From a virus (Duplodnaviria; Heunggongvirae; Uroviricota; Caudoviricetes): a stretch of DNA of 9,321 nt. A model generated the notes under the pieces. It was not told where the DNA came from and searched no databases. It worked only from the letters and a program-made list of their open reading frames with translations. The stretch is taken from the IMG/VR virus record IMGVR_UViG_2695420859_000017; one strand, written 5' to 3'. Both the position numbers and the translations under genes were made by a program. Each line of letters opens with the position of its first letter. The first letter of the stretch is position 1. This document shows, piece by piece, positions 1 to 9,321 of the stretch.

Positions 1-769
1 TGTTTTTCAGGCGGGTGAATGCCTGACTGGTTTCATCCGCCCTGTCAGTCACATCCTGCTTAAGTGCGGAAAAGGCAGTTTCCATCTCAGCGAGGCGCTG
101 CTCAGTGGCGCTCAGTTTTTCCTGCACATGTTCAGCGACAGCGGTCACCGCTTCATGCACGTCATTCAGACGGGCGTCATCGCTGGCCTGTTTGCGGCCA
201 AAAATGGATTTCACCTTTTCGGTCAGGGCGGTGAACACGGTTTCAGGCAGGTCTTCAAATTCCAGCTCAACGGGCGTTGCCACTGAAATCAGGTTTTCAG
301 GGCTTAATTTGAAGCGGTTCAGGGGGTTGTGTTTTGCCGTGCGGCAGAATTCCAGGTATTCCGTGCCGAGGCTTGCCGGGTCATCGGTGACAGCCAGCCC
401 CACCAGATAACATTTGCCGGTATTGGCAAAGTTCGGCTGAATTTCCATTGAGGTGTAGACCTTCTGCGCGGCCTTGTTCATCGCGATAAGGTCATCGGTC
501 GGGGTGATTTTCGCAAACAGCGCCCATTTGCCTTTCAGCGCCGAATCGTCATCAATCTTTTCGGCCTTCAGTTCGGCCACATCGCCATAACGTTTAAAAA
601 TACCGTCAGGCAGGATGCCGCGCAGATGTTCCAGGTTAATGCGGCAACCATAGACACGCGGGTCAAAGGTTTCCGCCATTTCCTGAATATCCTGCGCACT
701 GATGACACGCCCGTCACAGGTGTCACCCTCAACGCCGATACGAAAGAATTTTGAGACTTTTTTTGCCAT
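1..769 (-). CDS. O: Capsid scaffolding protein GpO, partial (start codon at 767..769; 3' end lies beyond the window start)
   Basis: Reverse complement of 700..769 translates MAKKVSKFFRIGVEGDTCDGRVIS, which I recognise as the N-terminus of P2 GpO. The frame is open to position 1. It is absent from the ORF track because its stop is outside the window. It is divergent from the terminase gene, as in P2. Confidence 0.85.
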   Translation of the reverse strand, partial: MAKKVSKFFRIGVEGDTCDGRVISAQDIQEMAETFDPRVYGCRINLEHLRGILPDGIFKRYGDVAELKAEKIDDDSALKGKWALFAKITPTDDLIAMNKAAQKVYTSMEIQPNFANTGKCYLVGLAVTDDPASLGTEYLEFCRTAKHNPLNRFKLSPENLISVATPVELEFEDLPETVFTALTEKVKSIFGRKQASDDARLNDVHEAVTAVAEHVQEKLSATEQRLAEMETAFSALKQDVTDRADETSQAFTRLKN

Positions 770-806
770 TGTCAGGAGTCCTGAATAGTGATTAGAGGAG
801 TCACAT

Positions 807-826
807 GTCGGCATCAGTTTCCCGAC
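807..826. promoter_or_regulatory. Dyad GTCGG-N10-CCGAC in the divergent O/P intergenic region; possible activator or operator site for the late promoters
   Basis: Seen directly: 5-bp perfect inverted repeat with a 10-bp spacer, between the O start (769) and P start (943). It does not match the TGT-N12-ACA spacing that I recall for Ogr-dependent late promoters, so function is unassigned. Confidence 0.2.
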
Positions 827-942
827 GATGCGCATCCTCCGCCATCAGTCCCGGATGGCTTATCGCTGACACAACAGCACCTTAGCGAATCGCGGGGCGC
901 GACTCAGTAGCCTTGCCGTGTATTCATCACGGCGAGGTATTC

Positions 943-2715
943 ATGACCATCACCACAGACACCACTCTTTTACACGACCCGCGTCGTCAGGCGGCGCTGC
1001 TGTACTGGCAGGGGTTTTCCGTGCCGCAGATTGCCGCCATGTTGCAGATGAAACGCCCGACGGTGCAGAGCTGGAAACAGCGCGACGGCTGGGACAGCGT
1101 TGCCCCCATCAGCCGTGTCGAAATGAGCCTGGAAGCGCGGCTGACCCAGCTCATCATCAAACCGCAGAAAACCGGCGGTGACTTCAAGGAAATTGACCTG
1201 CTCGGACGCCAGATTGAACGACTGGCACGGGTAAACCGCTACAGTCAGACCGGCAACGAGGCAGACCTTAATCCGAACGTCGCTAACCGCAACAAAGGCG
1301 AGCGTCGCAAACCGAAAAAGAATTTTTTCAGTGACGAAGCCATCGAAAAGCTGGAGCAGATTTTCTTTGAGCAGTCTTTCGACTATCAGTTGCACTGGTA
1401 TCGCGCCGGGCTTGAGCACCGCATCCGCGATATACTGAAATCCCGCCAGATTGGCGCAACGTTTTATTTTTCCCGCGAGGCGCTGCTGCGCGCCCTGAAA
1501 ACCGGCCATAACCAGATTTTTCTGTCGGCCAGTAAAACGCAGGCGTATGTGTTCCGCGAATACATCATCGCCTTTGCCCGTCTGGTTGACGTTGACCTGA
1601 CCGGTGACCCGATTGTCCTGGGCAATAACGGCGCAAAACTAATTTTTCTCGGCACCAACTCCAACACCGCGCAGAGCCATAACGGCGACCTGTACGTCGA
1701 CGAGATTTTCTGGATCCCGAATTTTCAGGTACTGCGTAAGGTGGCATCAGGTATGGCCTCACAGAGTCACCTGCGCTCGACCTATTTCTCCACCCCGTCC
1801 ACGCTGGCGCACGACGCCTACCCGTTCTGGTCAGGTGAACTGTTCAACCGGGGACGCGCCAGCGCCGCCGAACGCGTGGAAATCGACGTCAGTCATAACG
1901 CCCTTGCCGGTGGTCTTCTCTGTGCGGACGGCCAGTGGCGGCAGATTGTCACCATTGAGGATGCCCTGAAAGGTGGCTGCACACTGTTCGACATTGAGCA
2001 GCTCAAACGTGAAAACAGCGCCGACGATTTTAAAAACCTGTTCATGTGTGAATTTGTTGACGACAAGGCGTCGGTGTTCCCGTTCGAGGAGCTGCAACGC
2101 TGCATGGTCGACACGCTGGAAGAATGGGAAGACTATGCGCCGTTTGCCGCCAATCCGTTCGGCTCACGTCCGGTATGGATTGGTTACGACCCGTCACACC
2201 GTGGCGACAGTGCCGGATGCGTGGTGCTGGCACCGCCGGTGGTGGCCGGTGGCAAATTCAGAATACTTGAGCGTCACCAGTGGAAAGGCATGGACTTTGC
2301 CACCCAGGCTGAATCCATCCGCAAACTCACCGAAAAATACAACGTCGAATACATCGGAATTGATGCCACCGGCCTCGGTGTCGGCGTGTTCCAGCTCGTT
2401 CGCTCGTTCTATCCCGCCGCGCGCGATATCCGCTACACGCCGGAAATGAAAACCGCAATGGTGCTCAAGGCAAAAGACGTTATTCGCCGTGGCTGTCTGG
2501 AATATGACGTCAGCGCCACCGACATCACCAGCTCGTTTATGGCTATCCGCAAGACCATGACCAGCAGCGGACGCAGCGCCACCTATGAGGCCAGCCGCAG
2601 CGAGGAAGCCAGCCACGCCGACCTCGCCTGGGCGACCATGCACGCCCTGTTAAATGAGCCACTCACCGCCGGTATCAGCACCCCGCTGACATCCACCATT
2701 CTGGAGTTTTACTGA
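943..2715 (+). CDS. P: Terminase large (ATPase) subunit GpP
   Basis: 590-codon ORF beginning MTITTDTTLLHDPRRQAALLYWQGFSVPQIAAMLQMKRPTVQSWKQRDGWD, recognised as P2-family GpP. ATG at 943 follows GAGG at 933..936; the ORF-track start at 913 is an upstream TTG and less likely. Stop TGA overlaps the next ATG (ATGA at 2715..2718). Confidence 0.9.
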   Translation: MTITTDTTLLHDPRRQAALLYWQGFSVPQIAAMLQMKRPTVQSWKQRDGWDSVAPISRVEMSLEARLTQLIIKPQKTGGDFKEIDLLGRQIERLARVNRYSQTGNEADLNPNVANRNKGERRKPKKNFFSDEAIEKLEQIFFEQSFDYQLHWYRAGLEHRIRDILKSRQIGATFYFSREALLRALKTGHNQIFLSASKTQAYVFREYIIAFARLVDVDLTGDPIVLGNNGAKLIFLGTNSNTAQSHNGDLYVDEIFWIPNFQVLRKVASGMASQSHLRSTYFSTPSTLAHDAYPFWSGELFNRGRASAAERVEIDVSHNALAGGLLCADGQWRQIVTIEDALKGGCTLFDIEQLKRENSADDFKNLFMCEFVDDKASVFPFEELQRCMVDTLEEWEDYAPFAANPFGSRPVWIGYDPSHRGDSAGCVVLAPPVVAGGKFRILERHQWKGMDFATQAESIRKLTEKYNVEYIGIDATGLGVGVFQLVRSFYPAARDIRYTPEMKTAMVLKAKDVIRRGCLEYDVSATDITSSFMAIRKTMTSSGRSATYEASRSEEASHADLAWATMHALLNEPLTAGISTPLTSTILEFY

Positions 2716-3872
2716 TGAGCAAGAAAAAAGGGAAAACACCGCAACCTGCGGCAAAAACAATGATCGCCAGCGCCCCGAAAATGGAGGCATTCACCTTTGG
2801 CGAGCCGGTACCGGTACTCGACCGCCGTGACATTCTTGATTACGTCGAATGCATCAGTAACGGCAGATGGTATGAGCCACCGGTCAGCTTTACCGGTCTG
2901 GCAAAAAGCCTGCGTGCCGCCGTGCATCACAGCTCCCCGATTTACGTCAAACGCAATATTCTGGCCTCGACATTTATCCCGCATCCGTGGCTTTCACAAC
3001 AGGATTTCAGCCGCTTTGTGCTGGATTTTCTGGTGTTCGGTAATGCGTTTCTGGAAAAGCGTTACAGCACCACCGGTAAGGTCATCAGACTGGAAACCTC
3101 ACCGGCAAAATATACCCGCCGTGGTGTGGAAGAGGATGTTTACTGGTGGGTGCCGTCCTTCAACGAGCCGACAGCCTTCACGCCCGGCTCCGTGTTTCAC
3201 CTGCTGGAGCCGGATATTAATCAGGAGCTGTACGGCCTGCCGGAATATCTCAGCGCCCTTAATTCTGCCTGGCTGAATGAGTCGGCCACGCTGTTTCGCC
3301 GCAAGTATTACGAAAACGGTGCTCATGCCGGATATATCATGTACGTCACTGATGCCGTGCAGGATCGCAACGATATCGAAATGCTTCGCGAAAACATGGT
3401 TAAGTCGAAAGGCCGCAACAACTTTAAAAATCTGTTTCTCTATGCCCCACAGGGGAAAGCCGACGGCATTAAAATTATCCCGCTCAGTGAAGTGGCAACG
3501 AAGGACGATTTTTTTAATATCAAAAAAGCCAGCGCCGCAGACCTGCTGGACGCGCACCGCATCCCTTTTCAGTTGATGGGCGGCAAGCCGGAGAACGTCG
3601 GGTCGCTGGGTGATATTGAGAAAGTGGCAAAGGTCTTTGTACGCCGTGGCTGTCTGGAATATGACGTCAGCGCCACCGACATCACCAGCTCGTTTATGGC
3701 TATCCGCAAGACCATGACCAGCAGCGGACGCAGCGCCACCTATGAGGCCAGCCGCAGCGAGGAAGCCAGCCACGCCGACCTCGCCTGGGCGACCATGCAC
3801 GCCCTGTTAAATGAGCCACTCACCGCCGGTATCAGCACCCCGCTGACATCCACCATTCTGGAGTTTTACTGA
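2715..3872 (+). pseudogene. Chimeric ORF: portal (GpQ) N-terminal ~309 codons fused in frame to a duplicated terminase C-terminal 76 codons
   Basis: Residues 1 to ~309 match the full portal copy at 4916..5935. From about nt 3642 the sequence shows no differences on visual comparison from terminase 2485..2715 (RRGCLEYDVSATDITSSFMAIRK...STILEFY), ending at a second copy of the P-stop/Q-start overlap. Confidence 0.55.
3642..3872 (+). repeat. Duplicate copy of the terminase 3' end (equals 2485..2715)
   Basis: Visual base-by-base comparison of 3642..3872 with 2485..2715 found no differences, including the terminal tactgATGagc junction. Confidence 0.8.
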
Positions 3873-4271
3873 TGAGCAAGAAAAAAGGGAAAACACCGCA
3901 ACCTGCGGCAAAAAAAATGACCGCCAGCACCCCGAAAATGGAGGCATTCACCTTTGGCGAGCCGGTGCCGGTACTCGACCGCCGTGACATTCTGGATTAC
4001 GTCGAATGCATCAGTAACGGCAGATGGTATGAGCCACCGGTCAGCTTTACCGGTCTGGCAAAAAGCCTGCGTGCTGCCGTGCATCACAGCTCACCGATTT
4101 ACGTCAAACGCAATATTCTGGCGTCGACATTTATCCCGCATCCGTGGCTTTCCCAGCAGGATTTCAGCCGCTTTGTGCTGGATTTTCTGGTGTTCGGTAA
4201 TGCGTTTCTGGAAAAGCGTTACAGCACCACCGGTAAAGTTATCAGGCTGGAAACCTCACCGGCAAAATATA
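3872..4271 (+). pseudogene. Portal (GpQ) 5' fragment, ~133 codons, diverged allele
   Basis: Begins MSKKKGKTPQPAAKKMTASTPKMEAF and tracks the portal to ...ETSPAKY. It differs from the other two copies by scattered single-base changes (KTMIASAP becomes KKMTASTP, plus apparently synonymous changes). After ~4271 the portal frame runs into unrelated sequence and stops at 4471. Confidence 0.55.
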
Positions 4272-4916
4272 TCGGTGTTCCCGTTCGAGGAGCTGCAACG
4301 CTGCATGGTCGACACGCTGGAAGAATGGGAAGACTATGCACCCTTTGCCGCCAATCCGTTCGGCTCCCGCCCGGTATGGATTGGTTACGACCCGTCACAC
4401 CGTGGCGACAGCGCCGGATGCGTGGTGCTGGCACCGCCGGTGGTGGCCGGTGGCAAATTCAGAATACTTGAGCGTCACCAGTGGAAAGGCATGGACTTTG
4501 CCACCCAGGCGGAATCCATCCGCAAACTCACCGAAAAATACAACGTCGAATACATCGGTATTGATGCCACCGGCCTCGGTGTCGGCGTGTTCCAGCTCGT
4601 GCGCTCGTTCTATCCTGCCGCGCGCGACATCCGCTACACGCCGGAAATGAAAACCGCAATGGTGCTCAAGGCAAAAGACGTTATCCGCCGTGGCTGTCTG
4701 GAATACGACGTCAGCGCCACCGACATCACCAGCTCGTTTATGGCTATCCGTAAGACCATGACCAGCAGCGGACGCAGCGCCACCTATGAGGCCAGCCGCA
4801 GCGAGGAAGCCAGCCACGCCGACCTCGCCTGGGCGACCATGCACGCCCTGTTAAATGAGCCACTCACCGCCGGTATCAGCACCCCGCTGACATCCACCAT
4901 TCTGGAGTTTTACTGA
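4272..4916 (+). pseudogene. Terminase (GpP) 3' fragment, ~214 codons, diverged allele, out of frame with the preceding portal fragment
   Basis: 4272..4916 corresponds to terminase 2071..2715 (VFPFEELQRCMVDTLEEWEDYAPFAANPF ... STILEFY) with several apparently synonymous single-base differences. It lies in a different frame from the portal fragment upstream; the ORF-track entry 3954..4916 is this frame reading backwards by chance. Confidence 0.55.
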
Positions 4917-5935
4917 TGAGCAAGAAAAAAGGGAAAACACCGCAACCTGCGGCAAAAACAATGATCGCCAGCGCCCCGAAAATGGAGGCATTCACCTTTG
5001 GCGAGCCGGTACCGGTACTCGACCGCCGTGACATTCTTGATTACGTCGAATGCATCAGTAACGGCAGATGGTATGAGCCACCGGTCAGCTTTACCGGTCT
5101 GGCAAAAAGCCTGCGTGCCGCCGTGCATCACAGCTCCCCGATTTACGTCAAACGCAATATTCTGGCCTCGACATTTATCCCGCATCCGTGGCTTTCACAA
5201 CAGGATTTCAGCCGCTTTGTGCTGGATTTTCTGGTGTTCGGTAATGCGTTTCTGGAAAAGCGTTACAGCACCACCGGTAAGGTCATCAGACTGGAAACCT
5301 CACCGGCAAAATATACCCGCCGTGGTGTGGAAGAGGATGTTTACTGGTGGGTGCCGTCCTTCAACGAGCCGACAGCCTTCGCGCCCGGCTCCGTGTTTCA
5401 CCTGCTGGAGCCGGATATTAATCAGGAACTGTACGGCCTGCCGGAATATCTCAGCGCCCTTAACTCTGCCTGGCTGAATGAGTCGGCCACGCTGTTCCGC
5501 CGCAAGTATTACGAAAATGGCGCACATGCCGGATACATCATGTACGTCACTGATGCCGTGCAGGACCGCAACGATATCGAAATGCTTCGCGAAAACATGG
5601 TCAAGTCGAAAGGCCGCAACAACTTTAAAAATCTGTTTCTCTATGCCCCACAGGGAAAAGCCGACGGCATTAAAATTATCCCGCTCAGTGAAGTGGCGAC
5701 GAAGGACGATTTTTTTAATATCAAAAAAGCCAGCGCGGAAGATCTAATGAGTGCCCATCGAGTCCCCCCGCAAATGATGGGGATGATGCCTAATAATGCG
5801 GGAGGATTTGGCGATGTAGTTAAAGCGGCTAAAGTTTTTGTCAGGAATGAGTTAGGGCATCTACAATCGCGAATGAAGGAATTGAACTCATGGATAGGTG
5901 AAACAGTTATAACATTTAACAATTACTCGTTATAA
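4916..5935 (+). CDS. Q: Portal protein GpQ, full length (339 aa), with a diverged AT-rich 3' end
   Basis: ORF starting MSKKKGKTPQPAAKTMIASAPKMEAFTFGEPVPVLDRRDILDYVECISNGRWYEPP, recognised as the P2-family portal. ATG overlaps the stop of the preceding terminase-derived segment. It is the only copy with a portal-type C-terminus and stop. Confidence 0.85.
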   Translation: MSKKKGKTPQPAAKTMIASAPKMEAFTFGEPVPVLDRRDILDYVECISNGRWYEPPVSFTGLAKSLRAAVHHSSPIYVKRNILASTFIPHPWLSQQDFSRFVLDFLVFGNAFLEKRYSTTGKVIRLETSPAKYTRRGVEEDVYWWVPSFNEPTAFAPGSVFHLLEPDINQELYGLPEYLSALNSAWLNESATLFRRKYYENGAHAGYIMYVTDAVQDRNDIEMLRENMVKSKGRNNFKNLFLYAPQGKADGIKIIPLSEVATKDDFFNIKKASAEDLMSAHRVPPQMMGMMPNNAGGFGDVVKAAKVFVRNELGHLQSRMKELNSWIGETVITFNNYSL

Positions 5936-5941
5936 ACCCTG

Positions 5942-5965
5942 CAGGCTTTGGCTCACCAAAGCCTG
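5942..5965. terminator. Hairpin between the convergent portal gene and the cargo operon (10-bp perfect stem CAGGCTTTGG / CCAAAGCCTG, 4-nt loop)
   Basis: Seen directly. Lies in the 35-bp gap between the Q stop (5935) and the minus-strand stop at 5971. No strong T-tract on either side, so intrinsic-terminator strength is uncertain. Confidence 0.45.
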
Positions 5966-5970
5966 TAAGA

Positions 5971-6588
5971 TCAAGCAGATAGGCAAAACGTTTCTGTTTG
6001 CCCCAAGTGTTCAAACACAGTAATCGATGTTACTTTTCCGGCACTTATTTTGTTAAGGAACTTCAATATTTGTTGAGGCTCCTCCATGACTGCTGTTTTC
6101 TTGATTATAAATCCCTCAAGATTTTTCAAGCTGTATCGCTGACTTGAGTTCTCAAGAGCAGCAATCATTGCCGAACTGCGCATATCTCTATGTCCACTAG
6201 CTCTACAAACGACAGCATAATTTAAATTAAGCTCTACAAAATTTTGCCTTGTCAACTCTGGAAGGTGTTTACATACAAAATGAAATAAAGTCGTAACACC
6301 TTCATGTATTTTCAACCTTATATCATCCTTTTGTGAACGTCCTTCTTTAAATTCAATGAAGTACAATTTATCTTCATATAAAAATAAAGCATCCGGTGAT
6401 TTTTCTTTAAACTCACGCTTATAAACAGGCGAGCAATTTAACACCGTATCATAGTTAAAGCCCTTCGAATCACAAATAATAAAATTCCGAGCCCCTGCAT
6501 CATTGTAGCTTAATCCGGTTACATCAACCATTGAATCAGGGTATACTTCACACAGTTTTCTAAAAACAAGTTCCTCATTAGAAATCAT
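5971..6588 (-). CDS. Hypothetical 205-aa protein, second gene of the cargo operon; family not recognised; possible PD-(D/E)xK-like nuclease motifs
   Basis: ATG at 6586..6588 is preceded by AGGAG (reverse complement of 6596..6600) at 7-nt spacing and overlaps the upstream gene by 11 nt (ATGATTTCTAA). Strongly AT-rich. Contains FIICD (res 36-40) and LFLYEDK / FIEFK (res 68-81), which could be PD-(D/E)xK motifs II and III; this is inference only. Confidence 0.7.
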   Translation of the reverse strand: MISNEELVFRKLCEVYPDSMVDVTGLSYNDAGARNFIICDSKGFNYDTVLNCSPVYKREFKEKSPDALFLYEDKLYFIEFKEGRSQKDDIRLKIHEGVTTLFHFVCKHLPELTRQNFVELNLNYAVVCRASGHRDMRSSAMIAALENSSQRYSLKNLEGFIIKKTAVMEEPQQILKFLNKISAGKVTSITVFEHLGQTETFCLSA

Positions 6589-7906
6589 CCAAATACTCCT
6601 GATTCAATTCTTTTAATGGTGATGCCAAAAGATTAATTGCATATGCAACATTATCAGTAATATCAACAAAAGATGTAAACTCTTCCCCAGGGAATCGCTC
6701 GCTTATATAGAACCGATTTTCAATCCCAATTTTATCGCTATAATGTTTAAGAGCATCAATAATATACGGGCTATGTGTTGTAATTATTATATCAACCCCC
6801 ATAGACACTAACTCACAAATAATCTCAGCATAGAAAACCTGCCATTTTGGATGTAAGTTCACCTCTGGCTCATCAATAATCAGTAACGAGTTATCTACTG
6901 CTGCCCCGCACTTAACAAGCATATCAAGAATACCTAAAGACTTTATTCCTGACGCAATATTACCCGATGTGACTTTATAGCCTTGCTTCTCTAGAAAAAA
7001 ATCATTCTTTTCAATATCATAAACCACTTCACCACAGAAAGTAGCATTGATTTTGTTAGATATACGCAGTGACTCTTTTAAAAATGAGCCATCATCAAAA
7101 ATATCCGAATGCACAAATAAATTATAAACTGAATCGCTTAATTTTATTGATAGATCTTTCACATGCAATGGAACAGTTAGACGTCCTGATTCACCATTAC
7201 TATCAAATAAAGTTTTAGCAAAACGAACCAAATTATGAAATTGCATAATACTTGGAGAGTCAACATAGGTTGCGTCGACATATCCTAAGCCATCAGTATA
7301 ATCAAATTGTGATATACCATCTTTAGTCCATTTAATATCAATTAACTGACTAACACCATCAACAACTTCCAGAGATGCTTTAACTGGATTTTGATTACCC
7401 TTCTGAATAATTTCGCCTCTAAATTCAGAGTAAAAGGCCTTACGCAGAGCACGGTTGATAGCAGATAGCTCATCATCTGGCTCAAGCATTATATCTCTGA
7501 TTTTTCTTATATCAGAGAGTACAGAATCAGCCATCAATTCTGGAAGAAGCCCTTCCTCAATCAAATTATATAGATAACTCTCTCTCTCAGCCAAAGTTTT
7601 AGAGATATCTATTTTTAGAGAGGCATAAAACTTTCTTGGATTGAATAACTCTCTAATTTCCGGCGTAGCAGCAATATTAATCCTCCTACGCAGATTAAAA
7701 TATATTTTCTCTACGATAGATGTAATTCTATCCTCTTTGTCTTCTTCTAAATCCTCTTGATAACGAGATATCGCCTTTACCATTGAAAACAATATTTTCC
7801 CTACGGTACTCTTCCCCGTATCATTTTCACCAGTTATGACAGTTAAACCACCAACTGAAACATCAGCTTCTGCAATAGTTCCAAAATTATTAATTTTTAT
7901 ACGCAT
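6578..7906 (-). CDS. OLD/ABC-family (AAA_15/AAA_21-like) ATPase, 442 aa, with no Toprim or other nuclease domain
   Basis: N-terminal Walker A GENDTGKST (nt 7805..7831), C-terminal Walker B LLIIDEPE (nt 6863..6886) and H-loop TTHSP (nt 6767..6781), with ~300 residues between the Walker motifs. This layout is typical of OLD/GajA/AriA/PtuA-type ATPases. Spot counts of 60-nt lines give roughly 27-30% GC against about 60% in the structural genes. Confidence 0.8.
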   Translation of the reverse strand: MRIKINNFGTIAEADVSVGGLTVITGENDTGKSTVGKILFSMVKAISRYQEDLEEDKEDRITSIVEKIYFNLRRRINIAATPEIRELFNPRKFYASLKIDISKTLAERESYLYNLIEEGLLPELMADSVLSDIRKIRDIMLEPDDELSAINRALRKAFYSEFRGEIIQKGNQNPVKASLEVVDGVSQLIDIKWTKDGISQFDYTDGLGYVDATYVDSPSIMQFHNLVRFAKTLFDSNGESGRLTVPLHVKDLSIKLSDSVYNLFVHSDIFDDGSFLKESLRISNKINATFCGEVVYDIEKNDFFLEKQGYKVTSGNIASGIKSLGILDMLVKCGAAVDNSLLIIDEPEVNLHPKWQVFYAEIICELVSMGVDIIITTHSPYIIDALKHYSDKIGIENRFYISERFPGEEFTSFVDITDNVAYAINLLASPLKELNQEYLDDF

Positions 7907-7946
7907 AAACTATCTCACTGTACGCCAGATATCCAACCTTATGAAT

Positions 7947-7975
7947 ACTTTAGCATATTTCCAAAAAGATGACAC
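7947..7975 (-). promoter_or_regulatory. Candidate sigma70 promoter for the cargo operon (GTGTCA-N17-TAAAGT with a TG extended -10)
   Basis: Read on the minus strand between cos and the ATPase start codon. A 4/6 match at -35 and TGnTAAAGT at -10 would leave a ~40-nt 5' UTR. Pattern match by eye only. Confidence 0.25.
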
Positions 7976-7999
7976 TGGTGGTTGCAGGCCTCGCGCGCA

Positions 8000-8018
8000 G
8001 TGCTTTCCCCGCCTCGCC
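8000..8018 (-). other. cos: cos site: 19-nt cohesive-end sequence identical to P2 (GGCGAGGCGGGGAAAGCAC on the minus strand)
   Basis: Reverse complement of 8000..8018 is GGCGAGGCGGGGAAAGCAC, followed by CTGCGCGC, matching my recollection of the P2 left end. It sits in a GC-rich block, in the expected neighbourhood of the portal gene. Confidence 0.75.
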
Positions 8019-8112
8019 CGCCCGCTTCACGGGGCGGTTTTAATGCAGTTGCATAGATACTATGGATCCGCACCAGTCCTGACCGCACGCAGCCTGAACG
8101 GACATCCCCAGC

Positions 8113-8141
8113 GCATGCAAAAACATTCACTGGTTGCATGC
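8113..8141. other. Inverted repeat GCATGCAA-N13-TTGCATGC followed by CTTTTT
   Basis: Seen directly, ~100 bp from cos. Could be a protein-binding site or a weak terminator. Confidence 0.2.
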
Positions 8142-8302
8142 ATAGCTTTTTAAGTACGCCATACCGCAACTGTACATTTTTAAGCAATTGGCAACTTTAA
8201 AAAATTTACATTGCTTTCAAGACCTTATCATCCGTAGTCTCTGTTTTTTACTTTGAGCTACATCAATAAAATCTCAAACATGTTTAATGCAAAGCCCTTG
8301 TT

Positions 8303-8356
8303 ACACAACATAGAATGTATGTCTAGAAACAACGACATACTATATGTTGTGTTTTT
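8303..8356 (+). other. Long imperfect hairpin (arms ACACAACATAGAATGTATGTC / GACATACTATATGTTGTGT, 10-nt loop) followed by a T-run; terminator-like or sRNA 3' end
   Basis: Seen directly: 10-bp and 7-bp perfect stem segments separated by a small internal loop, then TTTTT at 8352..8356. An A-tract is lacking on the other side, so orientation is plus. Confidence 0.4.
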
Positions 8357-8418
8357 CCGGCTCTCTGTTCGGTGATATGCCAAATCACTTTGCGTTTAAA
8401 CAGAGCATTATTTCAGGG

Positions 8419-8433
8419 CAAGACTTCGCTCAA
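8419..8433 (+). repeat. 15-bp direct repeat CAAGACTTCGCTCAA, copy 1
   Basis: Exact 15-mer found again at 8683..8697; the two copies bracket the small ORF and its terminator. Confidence 0.5.
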
Positions 8434-8496
8434 AAGTCATTCCACCTAAGAAGCGCATATACCGGTGGAAGTTGCCCTCTACTTACAGGAGGCAAT

Positions 8497-8610
8497 ATGA
8501 AGAAATGCTATTACTGCATTCTCGTTCTGGCCCTCTTTGGCTATCCAAACGGTAGTCCGAGTGGTTTGTCAGTAAACGTCAGTAATATCAATGTCAGCAT
8601 TATGCTTTAA
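8497..8610 (+). CDS. Small hydrophobic peptide, 37 aa (MKKCYYCILVLALFGYPNGSPSGLSVNVSNINVSIML); function unknown
   Basis: ATG at 8497 is preceded by a consensus AGGAGG at 8487..8492 (4-nt spacing). Stop at 8608..8610 is followed 13 nt later by a strong intrinsic terminator. The N-terminus is KK followed by a ~13-residue hydrophobic stretch. Short length keeps confidence low. Confidence 0.35.
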   Translation: MKKCYYCILVLALFGYPNGSPSGLSVNVSNINVSIML

Positions 8611-8622
8611 TATGCTTCAAAC

Positions 8623-8652
8623 AAAAAAACCACCTGCCAGGGTGGTTTTTTT
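8623..8652. terminator. Rho-independent terminator, bidirectional form (AAAAAAACCACC-TGCCAG-GGTGGTTTTTTT)
   Basis: Seen directly: perfect GC-containing stem with a 6-nt loop, A-tract upstream and T7 downstream. Confidence 0.8.
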
Positions 8653-8682
8653 GCGCCCATCATCAATACGATGAAAGACTGA

Positions 8683-8697
8683 CAAGACTTCGCTCAA
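8683..8697 (+). repeat. 15-bp direct repeat CAAGACTTCGCTCAA, copy 2
   Basis: Identical to 8419..8433; AAGACT-like motifs also occur at 8675..8680 and 8696..8700. Confidence 0.5.
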
Positions 8698-8912
8698 GAC
8701 GAATTATGCGTCGACATAAGGTTACCCGCAATGATTTTATTAGACTAAATGGATGGCCTTTTATGACCCGGATCAAACGGCTGTCCTTACCGACATGCTA
8801 GTCACTCAATAGCATTTAGCCTTCTAATTCAGCATGCTATTGACCTTCTGCTGCCCCATAACTGCTCCGCATAAGCCATTCAATGCCATATCAAATCACG
8901 TTGTGTTTTTAC

Positions 8913-9321
8913 TCAAATGGGTAACGAGAACCCCGGCCACTCATCAGCAACCGGATACGTGAATTTTTTCCCGTCATAATTTACGGTCGCGCCACGCGCC
9001 AGCGCCTCAAGCTCCCATCGTTGCGGCCTGATACCGTTCTGAGCGAGGTCAACGCGGATACGGGTAATTTGCAATCGTTCAGACCTGGTCAGTCTGGCAG
9101 ATGGTGCAATTTCATGCGGTTTTAACGGGATTCCGTTTCTTTGCTGACGATTTGGTGTTCTCAGTCCGTGTTTTAATGCGCCCCTGAGCACCATCACTAC
9201 CTCCGGGTCACTCCATTCGATAACACCGTCATCTACCAGATTAAGCACTGCTGCGGCGTGCTCAGAAGGTGTGGGAGCCGGTAACGAAGTATCACCACCG
9301 GTGAGCTTTCCACAGTTATTG
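8913..9321 (-). CDS. Phage protein, 3' portion only (gene starts beyond the window end); probably the last gene of the early/replication operon
   Basis: The minus-strand frame is open from the window edge (…TGGDTSLPAPTPSEHAAAVLNLVDDGVIEWSDPEV…) to TGA at 8913..8915. The ORF-track start at 9248 is an internal GTG. GC content is backbone-like. Product assignment is positional inference only. Confidence 0.55.
   Translation of the reverse strand, partial: NNCGKLTGGDTSLPAPTPSEHAAAVLNLVDDGVIEWSDPEVVMVLRGALKHGLRTPNRQQRNGIPLKPHEIAPSARLTRSERLQITRIRVDLAQNGIRPQRWELEALARGATVNYDGKKFTYPVADEWPGFSLPI

Follow-up and report, generated by a model that had tools for sequence, protein, structure and literature searches.

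Why would a P2-like phage carry the junction between its terminase and portal genes three times over? The DNA analysed here (the window, 9,321 bp in length) has the features of a P2-like (Peduovirus) packaging module: Terminase_6N/6C domains followed by a Phage_portal domain, a stop/start overlap between the two genes and a divergent gpO. It shares with the P2-type module the leftward O gene for the gpO scaffold, the rightward P (terminase) and Q (portal) genes, the ATGA overlap, a downstream gpA, a cargo hotspot and cos, and it is 97-98% identical to phage P2, Wphi and many E. coli prophages. Our findings indicate that the triplicated junction is very probably a false "heterotype" duplication that arose when a short-read draft was scaffolded, and is not biology. 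In the phage itself, terminase and portal are almost certainly each encoded by a single normal gene, and once the false duplication is removed no difference from the P2-type module is left.

Layout of the triplicated P/Q junction

The motif TACTGATGAGC, in which the TGA stop codon of P overlaps the ATG start codon of Q, begins at positions 2710, 3867 and 4911; the expected number of occurrences is 0 (200 dinucleotide-preserving shuffles of the sequence gave no match in any). A preliminary description had given these overlaps as 2712, 3869 and 4913, which are the identical sites with an offset of 2 nt within the motif, and the fragment lengths that it listed agree with ours. On the plus strand, P is present in full (943-2715, 590 aa, Terminase_5/6N/6C) and then as fragments of 231 bp (3642-3872) and 645 bp (4272-4916), while Q is present as fragments of 926 bp (2715-3640) and about 400 bp (3872-4270) and then in full (4916-5935). 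By self-BLAST, 2071-3535 corresponds to 4272-5736 at 98.3% identity (25 mismatches in 1,465), and 3626-4271 corresponds both to 2469-3114 (97.2%) and to 4670-5315 (96.9%). The copies are 1.7-3.1% apart and differ at 40 sites, 36 of which are at the third codon position, so the differences are those of natural alleles and neither errors nor the marks of fresh duplicates.

Relatives of this prophage have a simpler arrangement. Seven complete E. coli genomes match the whole window at 98.4-99.0% identity within about 7,120 bp of their own sequence, 2,201 bp fewer than the 9,321 bp of the window; these seven and a 296-kb contig (L125, GCA_048655625.1) contain the same prophage with the same cargo and a single P/Q junction. 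The same terminase protein is found in ten further contexts, with one P followed by one Q in all ten, and it is variable cargo that adjoins Q in those relatives. The window has two junctions at which portal sequence runs backward into terminase sequence (junctions 1 and 2). Neither was found by BLAST in 5,426 complete E. coli genomes or among 50,697 phage records, and a wildcard-pattern scan for them gave no match. Exact-pattern scans of IMG/VR, GTDB genomes and JGI metagenomes gave no match either; those negatives are weak because each pattern included a placeholder "a", and it is the wildcard scan and the BLAST searches that provide valid negatives. One candidate carrier of junction 2, H31 (strain PSJ-12), was rejected as a decayed P2 remnant in which terminase and portal fragments had been abutted by deletion.

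Ambiguous bases at the two backward junctions

The window is the entire draft contig CYER01000057.1 (GCA_001283965.1). When the archived record was compared with the window, the two were mismatched at positions 3641 and 4271 only: the archived base is N in each case and the window has "a". These are the only ambiguous bases in the 9,321, and they fall precisely on the two backward junctions from portal to terminase; for two positions taken at random, the probability of hitting both is about 2e-8. At junction 1 the archived sequence reads ...GGTCTTTGTNCGCCGTGGC..., with the placeholder at 3641 lying between portal codon 309 and terminase codon 514. At junction 2 it reads ...CGGCAAAATATNTCGGTGTTC..., with the placeholder at 4271 lying between portal codon 133 and terminase codon 376. 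The natural alleles at the site of 3641 are C (120 cases) or T (2 cases) in the portal gene and C (93) or T (8) in the terminase gene, with A in none, and the "a" displayed there therefore fits a placeholder. It is unlikely that the Ns stand for some other IUPAC code, that is, for an ambiguous call and not a gap, since there are two ambiguous positions in all and each of them is a junction. An N implies that the assembler had no sequence across the join. With N at 3641 and 4271, and with no sequenced base across the junctions, the contig is best read as three contigs joined by scaffolding. Its outer ends fall within the conserved P2 genes O and A, which is typical of a contig that is bounded by repeats.

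The flanks of the two junctions have different properties. At junction 1 the portal sequence before the join and the terminase sequence before the entry point are alike at 14 of 19 positions; among 1.78 million pairings of a portal position with a terminase position, just 66 reach that level (p ~4e-5). Junction 2 has a microhomology of 0-1 nt, and the parental sequences are without homology there. The Ns at the joins make the junction-1 similarity unreadable as a signature of recombination. A blind abutment of contig ends would not predict it, which is a counter-point to an artefact; it may have arisen either by chance or from the way in which the scaffolder looks for overlaps.

Two prophage haplotypes in three scaffold pieces

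The three pieces that are separated by the Ns can be resolved into two natural haplotypes, X and Y, that are about 98% identical over P-Q. Thirty-nine sites are diagnostic, and every piece is made up of pure X and pure Y blocks. When un-shuffled, X consists of window positions 1-2550, 3708-4270 and 5315-9321 and agrees with the single-junction E. coli prophage of L125 at 7,119 of 7,120 bases; Y forms one fragment of 1,571 bp (Y 2070-3640), all 1,571 bases of which are shared with the prophage of E. coli O121 201805972. As assembled, pieces A and C are 70 and 26 differences away from X, and their top matches in complete genomes are merely 98.6% and 99.4% identical.

Piece A (1-3640, plus strand) carries, by gene calls and Pfam domains, the 3' part of gpO (1-769, minus strand), P, and codons 1-309 of Q. 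It is chimeric, being X through 2550 and Y at 2758-3640; it differs from natural X (L125) once up to 2757 and from natural Y (the O121 prophage) nowhere over 2551-3640. Piece B (3642-4270, plus strand, 629 bp), composed of 231 bp of the terminase 3' end and about 400 bp of the portal 5' region, is pure X, with 0 differences from L125 and 15 from natural Y. Piece C (4272-9321, plus strand) carries 645 bp of the terminase 3' end, the full Q, the cargo, cos and the 3' end of gpA. This piece too is chimeric: Y alleles occupy 4340-5290, and everything from 5381 is X. Compared with natural X it has 26 differences, all of them Y alleles at 2139-3089 in common coordinates, and from common position 3180 it matches L125 without a single difference. 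The switches within A and C sit inside two plus-strand stretches in which X and Y are identical. The X-to-Y switch of piece A lies in S1 (207 bp, 2551-2757; further copies at 3708-3914 and 4752-4958), between the last X-diagnostic site at 2550 and the first Y-diagnostic site at 2758, and the Y-to-X switch of piece C lies in S2 (90 bp, 5291-5380; copies at 3090-3179 and, truncated, at 4247-4270), between the last Y-diagnostic site at common position 3089 and the first X-diagnostic site at common position 3180.

X carries an AT-rich ATPase cargo and Y has the canonical portal tail. Copy 1 contains 105 bp of a canonical portal tail, which the resident X prophage lacks (58% identity). The O121 prophage is 90% identical to the right end of the contig. 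For the 205-aa cargo partner, a single-sequence AlphaFold model was too poor for use (mean pLDDT 47).

These observations suggest how the contig may have come about. The read set would have held two P2-like prophage haplotypes, X and Y, and the assembler would have swapped one for the other within S1 and S2, so that contig A emerged as X with a 3' Y overhang, contig B as pure X and contig C as a 5' Y overhang followed by X. Read pairs from the X prophage would then have linked the X parts of A, B and C in turn, and the scaffolder would have taken the order A-B-C from those links. As a result of the Y overhangs, neighbouring contigs would overlap in coordinates by about 1.16 kb (1,156 bp) and 1.04 kb (1,043 bp) with sequences that do not match; the scaffolder would have seen no overlap and written a single N at each join. 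ABySS, in its "Overlap" step, and SSPACE write a single n where read pairs predict an overlap and none is found, and the joins here resemble theirs in having one ambiguous base apiece between contigs that overlap in their true coordinates and differ by haplotype. The single N would thus mean "overlap expected but not found". On this scheme the real X prophage would have one P and one Q across 7,120 bp and not 9,321 bp, and the 1,571 bp of Y would be part of a second prophage, the rest of which would lie on other contigs. The preliminary description had offered an assembly artefact from collapsed or mixed reads as one of its two explanations. The artefact stands, whereas collapse does not describe it: the two haplotypes stayed un-collapsed and three partly chimeric contigs were strung in tandem.

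False heterotype duplications have been characterised by Ko et al. (2022, Genome Biol 23:205, PMC9516828), who name among the hallmarks an assembly gap that separates the copies and, within every copy, sequence specific to one haplotype, describe false gene gains and chimeric gene models as consequences, and point to Kelley and Salzberg (2010) as earlier work on false duplications. The window has its sole two Ns between copies 1 and 2 and between copies 2 and 3, its haplotype-specific sequence matches natural X at 7,119/7,120 and natural Y at 1,571/1,571, and the region is single-copy in better assemblies (the seven complete genomes and L125). As in the cases of Ko et al., similar versions of a region were assembled apart and set side by side on one scaffold. 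Unlike those cases, the "haplotypes" here are paralogous prophages or strains in a haploid bacterium and not diploid alleles, and the gaps are one base long and become invisible once N is shown as a base.

Alternative origins and false gene models

A scaffolding artefact of the same kind would also result if Y came from a second E. coli strain in a mixed or contaminated culture. From the contig, a single genome that carries both prophages looks the same as two genomes that carry one apiece, and X and Y are each found alone in other genomes. We consider this origin of Y unlikely all the same: genomes with two or more P2-like prophages seem to be common (the whole window matches up to five separate places in some complete genomes, and two places in several X-type genomes), and the mixing of strains would as a rule impair an assembly throughout. 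We infer that X and Y reside within one genome.

A genuine rearrangement between two co-resident or co-infecting P2-like phages, with the Ns as uncalled bases at real junctions, is quite improbable. Its simplest version is a two-step template switch in which X is copied to portal codon 133, followed by a switch to Y at terminase codon 376, after which Y is copied for 1.57 kb to portal codon 309 and X is re-entered at terminase codon 514. In its favour, X 1-3113, Y 2070-3640 and X 2485 to the end add up to the length of the contig exactly, no k-mer of the window up to k = 77 is missing from this X/Y/X order, junction 1 falls on one of the best Q/P microhomology patches (14/19), as in microhomology-mediated events, and P and Q would each survive in one intact copy. 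It was the Ns at 3641 and 4271 that overturned this model, with its microhomology at junction 1 and its X/Y/X order, because a graph assembler with junction-spanning reads would have written bases there. Junction 2 is also without homology, neither junction was found in the 5,426 complete E. coli genomes or in deposited phages, the order of the contig as it stands needs two extra homologous exchanges, and it would be very rare a priori for illegitimate recombination to strike twice, independently, within 631 bp and in a lineage without intermediates. That the Ns mask real junctions, with 1.57 kb of Y copied into X by two backward switches during co-replication, is accordingly very improbable in our estimation. 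If true, it would be a bacterial-phage case of multi-template replicative rearrangement in which one P and one Q stay intact, portal and terminase are also fused in frame and the prophage gains 2.2 kb of DNA.

Genuine tandem duplications were reportedly described in derivatives of P2 and lambda in the 1970s, and the window resembles them in its backward junctions and in its partial extra copies within an otherwise intact genome. Genuine duplications have sequenced junctions and copies that are identical at first; here N stands at both junctions, and the copies represent distinct natural haplotypes that are not derived from one another. The other explanation in the preliminary description was a nested duplication, in which a single degenerating prophage would have copied its own P/Q region in tandem. 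Backward junctions with partial copies are the topology that tandem duplications make, but the probability of this reading is close to nil: the copies differ by 1.7-3.1%, nearly all of it synonymous, the differences are alleles of two independent natural haplotypes found elsewhere and not private mutations, the 105-bp portal tail of copy 1 is missing from X, the junctions are unsequenced Ns and every other genome examined has a single junction.

Pieces B and C begin directly after the X/Y SNPs at 2484 and 2070, and each of the four seams lies at a naturally polymorphic position, compared with a polymorphic fraction of about 15% among sites in general. No single k suits all four ends, and the rare alleles at 3114 and 3641 are on different haplotypes; a reading of the piece boundaries as de Bruijn graph node ends was set aside as suggestive only. 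The window lacks Chi sites, and with them any support for fragment ends trimmed by RecBCD.

The triplication is without biological importance and its value is in quality control: two co-resident prophages that are about 98% identical can mimic a nested duplication convincingly in a draft assembly. The display of N as "a" in the window hid the sole character that marked the junctions as scaffold joins, and ambiguous bases deserve to be kept or flagged in such windows. Three false gene models result, namely a 385-aa fusion, a 199-aa ORF and a 163-aa ORF. The artefactual 385-aa ORF (2715-3872, plus strand; CTY49476.1) joins Q residues 1-309 to P residues 514-590, with Phage_portal and Terminase_6C domains; the N does not interrupt it, since every GTN codon specifies Val, and the exact protein is found on CYER01000057.1 only. 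The artefactual 199-aa ORF (3872-4471, plus strand) consists of Q residues 1-133 followed by out-of-frame terminase sequence and crosses the second N. Its exact translation had no match in the protein collection, as is expected if the deposited codon is NTC. The 339-aa portal Q at 4916-5935 (plus strand; WP_053881724.1/CTY49540.1) is, as assembled, a Y/X chimeric allele. The true X portal allele is that of L125. The artefact has thus spread to the protein databases, as the fusion CTY49476.1 and as the chimeric portal WP_053881724.1 (UniRef100_UPI0006A431DC), which occurs on CYER01000057.1 only.

Ambiguous bases at the repeated terminase-portal junctions

The window contains a segment of a P2-like prophage, in which the 3' part of scaffold gene O (1-769, minus strand) and the 590-aa large terminase gene P (943-2715) are followed by the portal gene Q, a two-gene AT-rich cargo (5971-7906, minus strand), a cos-like site (about 8000-8018) and, last, the 3' end of replication gene A. 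The motif TACTGATGAGC, in which the stop of P overlaps the start of Q, is expected zero times by chance and was counted three times, at 2710, 3867 and 4911; the three junctions reported in the preliminary description are therefore present, and the lengths it listed for the P and Q fragments are correct. Self-comparison of the window gave a nested layout, with 2071-3535 matching 4272-5736 at 98.3% and 3626-4271 matching both 2469-3114 (97.2%) and 4670-5315 (96.9%).

Exact look-up of the 385-aa ORF at 2715-3872 identified the window as the complete contig CYER01000057.1 (9,321 bp), part of the draft E. coli assembly GCA_001283965.1. Window and archived record disagree at just two positions, 3641 and 4271, where the record has N and the window 'a'. 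No other ambiguous character occurs in the contig, and both Ns lie precisely at the backward junctions, a coincidence with a chance probability of about 2e-8. The contig passes from portal codon 309 to terminase codon 514, and from portal codon 133 to terminase codon 376, with no connecting sequenced base in either case. Both backward junctions are scaffold joins. The ambiguous bases were evidently swapped for A during preparation of the window, hiding the joins from its reader. Because 3641 is a placeholder, the 'a' there matches no natural portal or terminase allele; GTN encodes valine whatever the base, so the fusion ORF still translates, and the second N, which falls in a codon NTC, accounts for the lack of an exact match in the protein collection to the 199-aa ORF that runs across it.

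Two natural haplotypes in the repeated copies

Between the copies there are 40 differing sites, of which 36 are third codon positions; these differences are selection-filtered natural alleles, neither sequencing errors nor the mark of a fresh duplication. Comparison with reference prophages showed that the alleles form blocks of two haplotypes, X and Y. When re-registered as window 1-2550 + 3708-4270 + 5315-9321, X is identical at 7,119 of 7,120 positions to an ordinary prophage of another E. coli (L125; GCA_048655625.1). The leftover material is one contiguous 1,571-bp Y fragment, running from terminase codon 376 to portal codon 309, and all of its positions (1,571/1,571) agree with the prophage carried by E. 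coli O121 strain 201805972. As assembled, the pieces fit far worse: they depart from X at 70 and 26 sites, and their closest complete genomes reach only 98.6% and 99.4%. Single Ns separate three pieces made up of X and Y blocks. Piece A (1-3640) carries X alleles as far as 2550 and Y alleles from 2758; piece B (3642-4270) is X throughout; in piece C (4272-9321), Y extends to common position 3089 and X begins at 3180. The switches in A and C fall within stretches of 207 bp and 90 bp, respectively, that are identical in X and Y.

Neither junction was found among 5,426 complete E. coli genomes in BLAST searches with 160-bp probes across each junction. In deposited phage genomes the three parts of a two-junction BLAST probe spread over the normal 1,575-bp P-Q region. 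Seven complete genomes match the window over its full length at 98.4-99.0% within about 7,120 bp, a span shorter than the window by 2,201 bp, exactly the extra material, and the identical terminase protein occurs in ten further genomic contexts, all of which (10/10) have one P and then one Q. Neither junction turned up when IMG/VR, GTDB genomes and JGI metagenomes were scanned for exact patterns, a weak result given that the patterns held the placeholder 'a'; the negatives from a wildcard scan, and from BLAST of complete E. coli genomes and deposited phages, are valid.

The sole apparent junction match, in E. coli PSJ-12 (NZ_AP027622.1; locus L001, 7722-8825), was rejected as a deletion remnant. 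In this decayed P2-like remnant, which adjoins yegQ, a fragment from the 5' part of terminase is joined directly to a portal fragment that lacks its N-terminus, amid many other truncated phage genes. This deletion scar is genuine, lies in a complete genome and illustrates real P/Q decay.

Origin of the false duplication and its database products

We conclude with high confidence that the triple P/Q junction does not represent a biological feature: it is a false duplication, an assembly error of a known class. Of the two origins first proposed, duplication in a degenerating prophage is not supported, since the copies are two natural haplotypes and the junctions are Ns; the assembly artefact is borne out by the Ns at both joins and by the match of X and Y, once re-registered, to natural prophages.

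The 9.3-kb contig has both ends inside conserved P2 genes, as expected from a short-read assembler where flanking phage genes repeat in the sample; ends of this kind imply that the reads included a second P2-like element. At the 207-bp and 90-bp stretches the assembler would have passed from one prophage to the other, leaving a Y overhang at the 3' end of contig A and the 5' end of contig C, while read pairs from the X prophage would link A to B to C. Because of the overhangs, the contigs would share coordinates (about 1.16 kb and 1.04 kb) yet carry different sequence there, so that the scaffolder would detect no overlap and place one N at each join. ABySS and SSPACE place one N where an expected contig overlap is not found. 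Among the published hallmarks of false heterotype duplications, described for diploid genomes, are an assembly gap separating the copies and sequence in every copy that is specific to one haplotype (Ko et al. 2022, PMC9516828); this contig shows both and is their counterpart in bacteria, involving two prophages. Without the 2,201-bp false duplicate the packaging module is an ordinary P2-type one that has a single terminase gene and a single portal gene, and the corrected segment is essentially identical to prophages of other E. coli.

Y may derive from a second strain in the culture and not from a second prophage, and the N at the junctions may be another IUPAC code normalised by the locus store; neither would make the triplication real. 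A real microhomology-mediated rearrangement between X and Y is very improbable: the order X[1-3113] + Y[2070-3640] + X[2485-end] needs only two template switches and gives the same length and the same k-mers to k = 77, and portal and terminase parents are unusually similar around junction 1 (14/19 nt, a score that 66 of 1.78 million position pairs attain), but reads across real junctions would have yielded bases and not Ns. The similarity patch at junction 1 is an unexplained coincidence or a by-product of an overlap heuristic.

Two proteins are products of this misassembly, and exact protein look-up found the first in this contig only: CTY49476.1, a 385-aa portal::terminase fusion ORF (2715-3872), and WP_053881724.1 (CTY49540.1; UniRef100_UPI0006A431DC), a 339-aa portal (4916-5935) that is an X/Y chimeric allele and is likewise known from this contig only. 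The practical value of the case is as a warning: artefactual proteins have been seeded into public databases, and a base put in place of an N concealed the evidence from the first-stage reader.

Cargo, portal tail and cos region

The cargo lies between the portal stop and cos and has a GC content of 35%, compared with 52-57% for P/Q. One of its genes encodes a 442-aa AAA_15/AAA_21 ABC-type ATPase, whose best PADLOC matches (HEC-02A, PD-T4-4_A, AriA and PtuA) run through the ATPase core only, and overlaps the gene for a 205-aa protein that has no match in Pfam, PADLOC, NCBIfam or PDB sequences and whose single-sequence AlphaFold model (mean pLDDT 47) is too poor for use. The two are a likely candidate defence-type pair in the P2 hotspot, and they are unchanged in seven complete E. 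coli genomes.

Divergent versions of the final 66 or so portal codons (5737-5935, codons about 274-339; compare 3536-3640) accompany different cargos. The X-type 339-aa portal has a tail of 42% GC, with 58% nucleotide identity to the canonical tail, and is paired with the 442-aa ATPase cargo; a related 339-aa portal tail at two other prophage loci (L127, L131) is paired with a different AAA_21 ATPase pair, and the canonical 344-aa portal tail with other cargos. This association places the recombination boundary of the hotspot inside Q, and the portal C-terminus co-varies with the cargo.

At about 8000 lies GTGCTTTCCCCGCCTCGCC, which we read as the P2 cohesive-end sequence in reverse complement; a GC-rich hairpin and a T-run come next (8018-8037). 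This block (about 8000-8037; 8912-8973 in L004, the O121 prophage) shows conservation in both X-type and O121 Y-type prophages; X carries its cargo between Q and cos, whereas the variable genes of the O121 prophage are on the other side of cos. The region of about 0.9 kb from cos to gene A (8040-8910) is without a convincing gene, its sole ORF (88 aa, 8344-8610) having no Pfam match, and shares just about 90% identity with the O121 prophage, which makes it far more diverged than P/Q.
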